Below are positions 16,133-19,426 of a stretch of 64,000 nucleotides of DNA, one piece after another (the stretch's first letter is position 1; every line of letters begins with the position of its first letter). Position numbers and translations under genes: made by a program. The notes beneath the pieces were generated by a model. It worked only from the letters and a program-made list of their open reading frames with translations, searched no databases and was not told the DNA's origin. Location of the stretch: NCBI GenBank assembly GCA_030980935.1, contig GCA_030980935.1_3059.1; one strand, written 5' to 3'. Origin of the DNA: a phage.

Positions 16133-16558
16133 TTATTCCTTAAAATGAGCTTTCAGCATCTGATACAAAGACCATGCCTGTTCATTATTTTCAATAGTAA
16201 CTTTCATGACCGGGAATTCTGTGAAATCTTCTATTTGTTCTTGCTCTTTCTCTTCCTGCTCTTGCTCTTCAACTGCCTGATATGGATTTTCCACTTCATC
16301 AAAGAACCCAGCTTCGTTAGTAGAAAGCCAAATAAAGTTTTCGTCAAGGATATCACCATGTGTTGCATATCCAACTGTGCCAGTAGATGTCACAATTTTA
16401 GTAGGACGACCAAGATGGTCAACATCTAAAATTTTAAAAGGATGCATACCTAAACGGCGTGCATAGATTCCGTTATCAGTATGATCTTTAATAAAATTTT
16501 CTTGAGCTTGTTTATTTTTAAATTGATACCATTTATTAACTTCAAATCTAATAGCCAT
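16133..16558 (-). CDS. goF: Hypothetical protein, possibly GoF (141 aa)
   Basis: Size and position match T4 goF; acidic [11 protein letters not shown] tract; assignment by synteny only. Confidence 0.4.
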
Positions 16559-16773
16559 TAATAAATTTCCTTCCAGTAAGTTGTACCGTCTTCAGTGATT
16601 TCACGGAATACACCATAAATCGGTTGTTTATCACCAACCTTTTCATACACATAAACCGAAGTCAAGTGAGTAAACTTGATGGTGTGTTCCTTTTGAACTA
16701 CTACCAAATCTGGATCGAATAATACATCTTCAAATTCGTCATTAGTGCAATTCTGAACAATTTTACGTTTCAT
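16558..16773 (-). CDS. cef: Hypothetical protein, possibly Cef (71 aa)
   Basis: 71 aa ORF after goF-like gene; synteny only. Confidence 0.4.
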
Positions 16774-16786
16774 TACAATTTCCTCA

Positions 16787-17068
16787 TTAATTAAACATTG
16801 GAGCGATACGTTTCAGAAGAGTAGCAGCACCTTTAGCGAATTTTACATCATGAAAAACAGTTTCTTCTTCTGTAACAACTCGAACTTTAATATTTTCACA
16901 ATCCCAATTTTTACGAACAATCTTCAAAAGCTGCAGTAAATCTTTACATTCAGCAATATCGATAACACATCCACGAGAATCTTCCATTATCGCACGATAA
17001 CCGTAAGCCATACCATAATCGTTAAAAGATTGCTCGATGATAATTAAGTTTTCCATTTTATTCTCCAA
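16787..17068 (-). CDS. Hypothetical protein (93 aa)
   Basis: Track ORF downstream of an early promoter cassette. Confidence 0.5.
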   Translation of the reverse strand: MENKMENLIIIEQSFNDYGMAYGYRAIMEDSRGCVIDIAECKDLLQLLKIVRKNWDCENIKVRVVTEEETVFHDVKFAKGAATLLKRIAPMFN

Positions 17069-17153: not shown

Positions 17154-17645
17154 TTATGCATAGCGAGCTTTGCTGTAGTGTTTAATCCAACTTTCAGGAA
17201 TGACTTTGTATGTTCCTAAAAATACCGTGTTGTACAGCTTAACACCGTCTTCTACCCACTGATCGGTAATGTATGCGCACATAGCACGAGTACGGTTAAC
17301 AACCCCTTCCTCACCTTCAGTAAATTCAAACTCATAAGGAGCAACGAACTTAATAGCTTGACCGAGTTTCCACTTAAAGTCTACGCCTACATGCGAAGTA
17401 TCAATCGTTTCAATTCCTTTAGCAGGAACAGCTTTTAAAAACGCAGACTCAAGAAATTTCGCACGAACATAGCCAAACTGGGGTTTAGACTTTCCATCTT
17501 TAGGAATGATACGCACTTTTACTTCAGAATCTTCATCTTTAACACCGTGTTTAAGCTGAATGCTTACAACTTCAACCAATTTTCCTGCTGCTTTAGAACG
17601 GGATTTATCAGATACACGAGCTAATTCACCAATATTAATAATCAT
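17154..17645 (-). CDS. motB: MotB-like protein (163 aa)
   Basis: Size and position match T4 MotB; synteny-based. Confidence 0.5.
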   Translation of the reverse strand: MIINIGELARVSDKSRSKAAGKLVEVVSIQLKHGVKDEDSEVKVRIIPKDGKSKPQFGYVRAKFLESAFLKAVPAKGIETIDTSHVGVDFKWKLGQAIKFVAPYEFEFTEGEEGVVNRTRAMCAYITDQWVEDGVKLYNTVFLGTYKVIPESWIKHYSKARYA

Positions 17646-17718
17646 AGTTATCTCTCACTTGTTAAAAAGATTTTATACTCCACGGGACCATTATACTCTG
17701 GTCCCAAGAGTTTGTAAA

Positions 17719-18156
17719 CTAGCTTACACGAACATTAATCACTGCGCTGCGAGGAACTACAGAGTACTCTCCAGCATGAACTACGTTCAGAAGTTCAACA
17801 CCATCTTCAATCCACTGATCAGTCACCCATCCACCCACAGGATTCGCGAATGGACGACGAATATAAACTGCCTTACACAGTAGATCAGTTGGATCTTCAG
17901 GTTTTTCAATTTCTGTCAATAGACTAAAATCTTTTTCATAAATAATAAGCGATGACACCATTCCATAATAGTTTCTAATTTCAATATACATCATGCCGAT
18001 AAGAATTCCGCTATTAACACTAATAACAGTAAAAGGATATCCGCCAGTTAAAGCAAGAAGTTCACAAAACTTATTATGAGATGTATTAGACAGTACCGGA
18101 AAATTCTTAATTTCATCAAATTTTTTCAATTGATAAACAGCATTATTTTTAATCAT
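17719..18156 (-). CDS. MotB-related paralogue (145 aa)
   Basis: C-terminus VTDQWIEDGVELLNVVHAGEYSVVPRSAV parallels ITDQWVEDGVKLYNTVFLGTYKVIPESWI in the neighbouring gene. Confidence 0.5.
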   Translation of the reverse strand: MIKNNAVYQLKKFDEIKNFPVLSNTSHNKFCELLALTGGYPFTVISVNSGILIGMMYIEIRNYYGMVSSLIIYEKDFSLLTEIEKPEDPTDLLCKAVYIRRPFANPVGGWVTDQWIEDGVELLNVVHAGEYSVVPRSAVINVRVS

Positions 18157-18166
18157 AATTTTCTCT

Positions 18167-18718
18167 TTAATCTAAGGTAATAAAGCCTTTTAATTCGGCA
18201 TGCGATTTGCGGAACATTACTTGATGTCCGCCAATGATAACTTGGTCATCTGGCACTTCATAAATCGCAATGTACATTCCACGTTCTTTTAAGTCTTCAC
18301 GCTCTTCTCGAGTGAACCATCTCATCATATCATATTCACTAGCGAAAGCAAAATGATATAATGCAATAAACCACAATGGAATATAATTTTCAATTCGTGA
18401 ATAATCTTTATTCCATTTAGTTTTAATAACATCATTAGCATTTTCAACTAATAACTTATCATCGTGTGGAATAGGAATACTTTCATGGCTTTCATAATTA
18501 TCGCTATGATGATGAAATGACGATGAATTAATACCGCAAAATTTTAGCCAAGTTCGAGTTTTCATAGAATCAAATCCACGATAAGGAGTTGATTGAACGC
18601 ATAACTCTTGCCTAATTTTGACTATACCACTATCATCATTTAATGCGCTAAACGATGATTCAACACGATAAATTTTCATTTTATTATCCTCAGTAGCTAT
18701 GGTGTTATAATACCACAA
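18167..18718 (-). CDS. Hypothetical protein (183 aa)
   Basis: Track ORF. Confidence 0.5.
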   Translation of the reverse strand: MWYYNTIATEDNKMKIYRVESSFSALNDDSGIVKIRQELCVQSTPYRGFDSMKTRTWLKFCGINSSSFHHHSDNYESHESIPIPHDDKLLVENANDVIKTKWNKDYSRIENYIPLWFIALYHFAFASEYDMMRWFTREEREDLKERGMYIAIYEVPDDQVIIGGHQVMFRKSHAELKGFITLD

Positions 18719-18742: not shown

Positions 18743-19426
18743 TTATCGTTTTGTTGGAAGAGACAGAGGATCGCAATCTTCCTCTGACGGAGCATCTTCA
18801 AGACCCATAGCGTATCGCAAAGCATACTTCATCATCAGGATGTCTTTCGCACAGTCATGAATAGAATCATGTGCAACGAATCCATCTAAAGTTCCCTTTG
18901 GAAGAGGACACGTGGTCATATCACGAACAAGCAGAAGTGCTTCAATTCTGGTACGAATATCACGCTGATTCCAGAATTTACATGGTTCTAACTTAAATGT
19001 ATCAAGCTCATTCTCGGAAACGCCATTAAGACGTTGAATATCGCGAATGAGATCGACTAAAATTGGAAAATCAAACGACATTCCACGGCACCAGCCTTGA
19101 GATTTCCAAGGATCGATATTATGTGCATTGATGTAATCGTTGAATTTTGCAATACCATCAATGGTGCTTACATCTTCATCGGATGGTGCAATATTTTTTC
19201 GAGCTTCAGGAGACTGATTTTTCCACCATTCGATAGTGCTTTTAGTAAAAAGACGATGTCCTTTTTGGCTTTTTAAATCAAATTTGATTTTAATGCCACG
19301 TGAAACTAGTTCATCGAATGATTCAACTACTTCTGGGTTAGGGTCAAAAGCAATTACAGCCAAATCAATAACAGCTGCTTTTTCACCACTTCCCATTGTT
19401 TCAAAATCTATAATAAAATCAAACAT
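18743..19426 (-). CDS. dexA: Exonuclease A (DnaQ-like 3'-5' exonuclease)
   Basis: 227 aa; N-terminal FIIDFETMG motif typical of DEDD exonucleases. Confidence 0.8.
   Translation of the reverse strand: MFDFIIDFETMGSGEKAAVIDLAVIAFDPNPEVVESFDELVSRGIKIKFDLKSQKGHRLFTKSTIEWWKNQSPEARKNIAPSDEDVSTIDGIAKFNDYINAHNIDPWKSQGWCRGMSFDFPILVDLIRDIQRLNGVSENELDTFKLEPCKFWNQRDIRTRIEALLLVRDMTTCPLPKGTLDGFVAHDSIHDCAKDILMMKYALRYAMGLEDAPSEEDCDPLSLPTKR

Follow-up and report, generated by a model that had tools for sequence, protein, structure and literature searches.

The locus considered here raises the question of what a partial likeness of neighbouring gene products stands for. Two early genes lie side by side on the minus strand of the window, i.e. 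the whole 64,000-nucleotide stretch of phage DNA analysed, and their protein products end in a similar way but begin differently. What is the unit that both proteins carry, how did two adjacent genes come to have it, and what could it do behind two different N-terminal partners? The sequence-only reading had noticed a common C-terminal motif in a 163-aa MotB-like protein and its 145-aa neighbour, and had proposed a duplicated DNA-binding or interaction module joined to diverged partner domains. The sharing of one C-terminal domain between MotB and MotB.1, on different N-terminal domains, is real and is confirmed here; it has also already been published. Patterson-West et al. (2021, Viruses 13:84; PMC7827196) described the conserved C-terminal domain, the different N-terminal domains and a possible duplication, and placed motB.1 immediately upstream of motB. 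The analysis below is concerned with the extent, predicted fold, descent and likely role of this domain.

Two neighbouring genes of a T4-like phage

The window is from the genome of a Tequatrovirus (a T4-like phage). The approximately 3 kb around motB and motB.1 are 99.1% identical to Citrobacter phage PhiZZ6 and 95–98% identical to many Tequatrovirus genomes, and the gene order and names on the minus strand were taken from the annotations of RB18 and T4 (Table 1). Both reading frames lie exactly where the sequence-only reading had put them, with a spacing of 73 bp. The 163-aa protein is T4 MotB, the 'modifier of transcription'; it matches the Pfam family motB (PF17613) with 334.9 bits (E 9e-101) over positions 1–162 of the 162-position profile, and PHROG 1671 with an E of 6e-76. 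An identity with the flagellar stator MotB, or with OmpA-like proteins, was ruled out, as there is no Pfam match to OmpA or MotB_plug; the name is coincidental. The 145-aa protein is a member of the T4 MotB.1 family, as it matches PHROG 2333 (E 2.4e-67, residues 1–144) and is encoded between motB.2 and motB, and its exact sequence is found in public collections. Judged by profile comparison, MotB.1 has one domain in common with PF17613 and is not a full member: it exceeds the gathering cut-off of 25 bits (32.7 bits for the protein, 35.3 bits for its C-terminal fragment by itself), but it covers profile positions 118–153 only and not the whole architecture of the family, which MotB matches over its full length. 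The N-terminal 85 residues of MotB.1 have no match in Pfam.

The end of motB.2 is only 10 bp before motB.1, so the two genes are probably co-transcribed. As called mechanically, the motB.2 frame starts with TTG and encodes 183 aa; the start annotated in RB18 is an ATG 13 codons downstream (MKIYRVESS..., 170 aa), and the annotated length in T4 is 166 aa. The unnamed 93-aa frame is annotated in RB18, and the T4 reference has at this place a 170-bp gap without an annotated gene. motB has its own T4-type early promoter, the −35 box of which starts with the final base of the stop codon of motB.1. The promoter has 11/12 matches, and its core, TTTACA-17-TATAAT, is the best match in the region in a promoter scan. 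The exact pattern GTTTAC-N16-18-TATAAT is found at five places in the window (chance expectation 0.15), always on the minus strand. The −10 box of the motB promoter lies inside a stem-loop with a predicted RNA folding energy of −19.7 kcal/mol (z = −4.3; 0/200 shuffles fold as well), which resembles the promoter/stem-loop (PeSL) cassettes of T4-type phages that have been proposed to mediate modular shuffling (PMC4122927). T4-like genomes are recombinationally plastic in the motB region (PMC4122927), and indels and fusion remnants were also seen at this locus.

Table 1. Features of the motB locus, with positions counted from the first letter of the window.
Feature	Position	Strand	Basis
goF	16133-16558	-	RB18/T4 annotation
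cef	16558-16773	-	RB18/T4 annotation
Unnamed 93-aa ORF between cef and motB (PHROG 3720, unknown function)	16787-17068	-	
motB CDS, 163 aa + stop	17154-17645	-	ORF list; PF17613; PHROG 1671; synteny with RB18, T4
MotB C-terminal domain, residues 86-163 (MotB.1-homologous 93-156 = 17178-17369)	17157-17390	-	hhalign, AF2
MotB core block AYITDQWVEDGVKLYNTVFLGTYKVIPES, residues 124-152	17190-17276	-	BLASTP alignment
MotB inter-domain linker, residues 69-85	17391-17441	-	AF2 pLDDT < 50 at 69-83
MotB N-terminal domain, residues 1-68, basic, predicted KOW/SH3-like beta-barrel	17442-17645	-	AF2; charge
Stem-loop GGGACC-N10-GGTCCC, -10 box in loop	17684-17705	-	RNA fold
T4-type early promoter for motB, GTTTAC-N18-TATAAT	17690-17719	-	Promoter scan; sequence identical in T4
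Early-promoter pattern matches	17690, 26010, 50912, 55584, 59290	all -	Exact pattern scan
motB.1 CDS, 145 aa + stop	17719-18156	-	ORF list; PHROG 2333; synteny with RB18, T4
MotB.1 C-terminal domain, residues 86-145 (MotB-homologous 92-141 = 17734-17883)	17722-17901	-	hhalign, AF2, Pfam
MotB.1 core block GWVTDQWIEDGVELLNVVHAGEYSVVPRS, residues 109-137	17746-17832	-	BLASTP alignment
Codon P86, MotB.1 junction: one Pro replaces 23-residue linker segment EEQEKFHIDMDLVSMYVAPVEKI	17899-17901	-	Alignment with RB18 MotB.1 and P0004
MotB.1 N-terminal domain, residues 1-84, acidic/neutral, predicted LSm-like (SH3-type) barrel	17905-18156	-	AF2, BFVD, PMC12152347
motB.2	18167-18718	-	RB18/T4 annotation
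dexA	18743-19426	-	RB18/T4 annotation

Extent and predicted fold of the shared domain

The motif is present as it had been described, as TDQWVEDGVKLYNTVFLGTYKVIPES in MotB and TDQWIEDGVELLNVVHAGEYSVVPRS in MotB.1. Pairwise BLASTP gives 16/29 identities and 21/29 positives (E 5e-10), and the Smith-Waterman score of the two proteins is 98, against 28.0 +/- 4.6 for shuffled sequences (maximum 57, n=5000), so that z is 15.3 and 0/5000 shuffles reach 98. The block is therefore statistically significant, a point on which the sequence-only reading could have fallen. In order to define the unit of homology, the homologues collected for both proteins were used to build two families, diverse sets of which were aligned and, with a hybrid sequence removed, compared as profiles. 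The homologous unit indicated by this profile comparison is the whole C-terminal domain of approximately 50–64 residues, because hhalign aligns MotB 93–156 with MotB.1 92–141 (E 1.5e-14, probability 98.3%, 50 columns); constraint is strongest in the 29-residue block. In MotB the domain is longer by an insertion of 14 residues, located between β1 and β2. The most constrained segment runs through β2, β3 and β4 and can be written [GA][WY][IV]TDQW[IV]EDGV.L.N.V..G.Y.V[IV]P.S. In the model of MotB the core block extends from the end of β2 through β4 to the start of a short helical turn. Searching all six frames of the window for the core D[QR]W[IVL]E gave the two known copies and no third. As for the N-terminal halves, they do differ, as had been stated, but as different domains and not, by any sequence test, as diverged copies of each other: the N-terminal 85 residues of the two proteins score 20, where shuffled sequences average 22.6, and hhalign gives the two N-terminal domains an E of 0.19 and a probability of 0.3%.

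AlphaFold2 models of the full-length proteins are of moderate confidence (pLDDT 79.8 for MotB and 81.7 for MotB.1; pTM approximately 0.5), and they predict two small five-stranded β-barrels in each protein. In the N-terminal domain of MotB the predicted strands are 8–11, 23–30, 41–46, 56–61 and 65–67, and the linker that follows is disordered at residues 69–83 in the model and of variable length among homologues. The N-terminal domain of MotB.1 is modelled with five strands and helices at 24–37 and 74–79. The predicted strands of the C-terminal domains are 97–110, 115–132, 135–142, 145–150 and 154–157 in MotB, and 96–99, 107–117, 120–127, 130–135 and 139–141 in MotB.1. Under the alignment, β3, β4, the helical turn and the start of β5 correspond, i.e. 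135–142, 145–150, 151–153 and 154–157 of MotB with 120–127, 130–135, 136–138 and 139–141 of MotB.1. Both C-terminal models thus have a short helical turn between β4 and β5. A turn at this position is the pattern of SH3, Tudor and KOW barrels; in OB folds a helix lies between β3 and β4.

Foldseek searches of the PDB gave similar best matches for both proteins, namely the tandem Tudor domains of 53BP1 and UHRF1, the tandem Agenet domains of AGDP and the KOW6-7 pair of Spt5. The E values were only 1.6e-3 to 5e-2, none reaching 1e-3, and the TM scores were low, as whole two-domain models with flexible linkers were searched. The tandem Tudor, Agenet and KOW pairs (53BP1, UHRF1, AGDP3, Spt5 KOW6-7) resemble the predicted architecture in being two consecutive small SH3-type barrels, but the likeness is at the fold level (best E 1.6e-3, TM 0.25–0.4, 10–18% identity) and has no Pfam match beside it. 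The resemblance is a marginal, fold-level lead and not a sign of membership. Neither a Pfam match to the Tudor/Agenet 'royal family' nor an aromatic cage conserved between the two families was found; the sole aromatic residue invariant across both is a Trp (W130 in MotB, W115 in MotB.1).

The N-terminal domains have been assigned separately. That of MotB was assigned to KOW by HHpred (PMC7827196); compared here with the KOW profile PF00467 it gave no match, and the Pfam search returned only motB at E up to 10. The Foldseek match of MotB to Spt5 KOW6-7 has an E of 5.5e-2. The N-terminal domain of MotB.1 was placed in an LSm-like fold family together with GoF and Frd.2 (Kim et al. 2025; PMC12152347); that paper deals with this domain rather than with the shared C-terminal block. 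The present model predicts a barrel of a five-stranded bent β-sheet, and GoF of phage VR7 is among the matches in a BFVD fold search (E 3.4e-3, TM 0.40/0.48, 89 columns). By sequence profile, the comparison of GoF with this domain was not significant (E 0.05–0.2).

The two domains of MotB.1 are joined by a linker that is polymorphic. Alleles of 166/167 aa, e.g. those of RB18, PhiZZ6-like phages and others, carry the 23-residue segment given in Table 1, and over this region the nearest genomes have 66 bp more (a 66-bp indel); the window phage and T4 have a single Pro instead. The MotB.1 discussed here is therefore the 145-aa allele without the segment, which distinguishes it from the one described in PMC7827196. 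A motif similar to the segment, [IF]D[FM]D[VIL]..S.Y..P[VI].P[IL], is seen at the N-terminus of relatives of 180 and 251 aa; in distant proteins made of KOW plus C-terminal domain, such a motif lies between the two.

Distribution, descent and the T4 reference sequence

The shared domain is a small, phage-restricted family. A tblastn search with the C-terminal domain found it at 1450 places in 782 phage records, and all listed hosts are enterobacterial. Most sampled Tequatrovirus records have two such places; T2, Kosakonia phage 305 and a Klebsiella phage have one. Against 1.84 billion cluster representatives, the profile of the domain matched only 34 proteins at E <= 1e-3, and these are small proteins of MotB or MotB.1 architecture together with a few long repeat proteins. 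In two of the long proteins, P0261 (601 aa) and P0262 (829 aa), 'GYATEQWV..K.Y[IL]T' is repeated many times, and these repeats match the core TDQWVEDG segment of the profile (E 1e-7 to 1e-6); we read them as tail-fibre-like, and the short motif is probably convergent. The domain profile has no match to any PDB sequence at E up to 10, the full MotB profile has two chance-level matches only, and a Pfam search with the domain returned only motB itself at E up to 10.

Of 270 representatives, 118 have a KOW-like N-terminal partner before the domain, 128 a single LSm-like domain and 7 two of these in tandem. Further 'categories' of proteins with a MotB.1-type C-terminal domain were described in PMC7827196, and the N-terminal domain of its 180-aa 'category 4' is related to that of MotB.1 (hhalign probability 88%, E 2.8e-6, 77 columns). 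Relatives of this category include P0042, P0049 (251 aa) and P0057 (180 aa), and those of 251 aa have two tandem LSm-like copies before the C-terminal domain. A 144-aa hybrid (P0120), encoded at 2090–2524 of a metagenomic T4-like contig (L005), has an N-terminal domain of the MotB-like KOW kind and ends in a C-terminal domain of the MotB.1 type. No other gene of this family was detected on the contig (5.9 kb), where the hybrid lies between dexA and cef, and neither motB.1 nor motB.2 was identified among its neighbours there; a single gene of this kind is a candidate for the ancestral state. A KOW-like N-terminal domain is likewise found in more distant representatives, there with a C-terminal domain of the 'DPTDLLC' type. 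The older arrangement would on this evidence be KOW plus C-terminal domain, and the genes with LSm plus C-terminal domain would have arisen by duplication with replacement of the N-terminal part. The locus also yields remnants: a 43-aa peptide (P0264) joins the N-terminus of MotB.2 (MKIYRVESSFS) to the final 28 residues of a C-terminal domain of MotB.1 type, and is a deletion remnant like the 29-aa peptide of RB69 reported in PMC7827196.

The duplication of the C-terminal module is old by the codon comparison, because the core blocks of the two genes are only 54.5% identical in nucleotides and share no exact run longer than 9 nt; the same codon is used at 10/16 identical residues.

The T4 reference sequence differs within the block itself. 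The reference MotB.1 (NP_049627, 119 aa, 13.8 kDa) ends '...GWVTDQWIGRWR', as one extra G at NC_000866.4 7304-7305 shifts the frame within the conserved motif, at TDQWI|EDGV. The DNA downstream of the extra G still encodes the rest of the C-terminal domain. The equivalent place in the window lies within 17806–17832, and the 145-aa protein of the window phage is intact. T4T (HM137666) and T4 'wild' (KJ477684) are without the extra G and encode 143 aa; among contig records the 143-aa full-length form was found on 256 and the 119-aa form on 2. The 119-aa annotation of T4 motB.1 thus rests on a single extra G, which may be of use to T4 specialists. The Methods of PMC12152347 give synthesised genes with NC_000866.4 coordinates and a 13.8-kDa MotB.1 that was largely insoluble. 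Since both the coordinates and the mass are those of the reference, that work appears to have used the 119-aa form, which is without most of the shared block (its last three strands); insolubility is what a truncated barrel might show.

What the shared domain may do

MotB binds DNA non-specifically, co-purifies with H-NS and StpA (PMC6070864; PMC7827196), is toxic if over-expressed, and alters H-NS footprints and silencing (PMC6070864; PMC7827196). For T4, a deletion of motB.1 had no phenotype in burst size or latent period (PMC12152347). The charge of the domains is indirect evidence in this respect. Residues 1–70 of the window MotB have a net charge of +5 and a pI of 9.75, close to the family median (+5, pI 9.8), and for the C-terminal domain the family medians are acidic, with a net charge of −2 (pI 5.2) for MotB and −5 (pI 4.5) for MotB.1. 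That of the window MotB is near neutral (pI 6.8), and the whole window MotB.1 has a pI of 5.35. Residues L, D, W, E, L, N, V and V are invariant across both families, and G, Q and G nearly so (90% or more); none of either class is Lys or Arg. From strand periodicity, D-W-E on β2 and L-N-V on β3 would lie on one face of the β2-β3 hairpin.

The shared domain is acidic and lacks a basic residue conserved across both families, and the N-terminal domain of MotB is basic; it is on these grounds that the shared domain is seen as an interaction module rather than a DNA binder. Of the double proposal in the sequence-only reading, the single homologous module with different N-terminal domains thus holds, and of its two suggested roles the DNA-binding one is disfavoured. 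That the shared barrel serves protein-protein interaction or assembly and that the N-terminal heads bind nucleic acid is, from sequence properties, roughly an even call. The explanation that accounts best for the locus as a whole, and is probably right, is a homologous barrel passed on by an old duplication with a swap of the N-terminal domain and acting as an interaction or assembly module.

The most serious alternative is that the shared domain is an OB-fold (cold-shock-like) nucleic-acid binder, i.e. a duplicated DNA-binding module. In the published analysis either MotB domain could bind DNA and the C-terminal one was called an OB-fold, HHpred having placed it in SCOPe b.40.4.5 with archaeal IF5A closest (PMC7827196). 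An IF5A chain, 8put_F, is indeed in the Foldseek list of MotB (rank 32, E 3.1e-2, probability 0.51), and the tight DNA binding of MotB (PMC6070864) would follow readily. The acidity of the domain and the absence of basic residues from the invariant and nearly invariant columns argue against a DNA-binding role, and the predicted whole-protein models place the helical turn at β4-β5, not β3-β4; a five-stranded Greek-key barrel of the SCOPe b.40.4.5 kind would call for the latter position and for a basic or aromatic nucleic-acid-binding face. For both proteins the best fold matches are pairs of tandem Tudor, Agenet or KOW domains, and the sequence matches no PDB chain and no other Pfam family. The SH3/Tudor-like reading of the models consequently sits uneasily with the published label, and the OB-fold explanation is considered rather unlikely.

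The other alternatives concern why there are two copies. Both could exist so that MotB and MotB.1 heterodimerize, an idea favoured by the adjacency of the genes, by the two copies in most Tequatrovirus records, and by the monomer and dimer of T4 MotB.1 on non-reducing SDS-PAGE (PMC12152347). The dimer band, however, appears to have come from the truncated 119-aa protein, and a single copy is seen on the contig of the hybrid and in the three phages listed above; heterodimerization as the reason for the shared domain is decidedly improbable. The block could also be a patch of recent gene conversion or recombination between neighbours, as the genes are so close together in a plastic region with indels and fusion remnants. 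The codon comparison led to rejection of this possibility, which is extremely improbable: the core blocks have diverged too far, and the MotB-type and MotB.1-type C-terminal domains are distinct conserved lineages across hundreds of phages. Chance or biased composition is refuted by the BLASTP, shuffle and hhalign statistics and has next to no probability left.

The motB/motB.1 pair goes back to an old duplication of the C-terminal module together with a swap of the N-terminal domain. The shared barrel stands behind a predicted basic KOW-like barrel in MotB and behind a predicted acidic LSm-like barrel of the GoF/Frd.2 kind in MotB.1. Under the preferred reading, it would join each of two unlike nucleic-acid-binding heads to one common partner, or to one kind of assembly. 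The head of MotB would be its basic N-terminal domain, in keeping with the non-specific DNA binding known for MotB and with its H-NS-related activity; that of MotB.1 would be the LSm-like domain, possibly directed to RNA. For MotB, composition and predicted topology point to the N-terminal domain for DNA binding and to the C-terminal domain for partner binding. A bolder version, which we regard as clearly unlikely, is that the acidic barrel is dedicated to docking or assembly, with a host nucleoid factor such as H-NS/StpA or with a nucleoprotein assembly built by the phage. It would be a common handle for interchangeable heads, a KOW-like DNA binder in MotB and one or two LSm-like domains, possibly binding RNA, in MotB.1 and its relatives, and MotB and MotB.1 would share a host target. 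If it were true, the negative results with T4 MotB.1 would be partly explained by the truncated reference sequence. In MotB specifically, the extended β1-β2 hairpin of the C-terminal domain, which is rich in lysine (Lys, Arg), could add to DNA binding.
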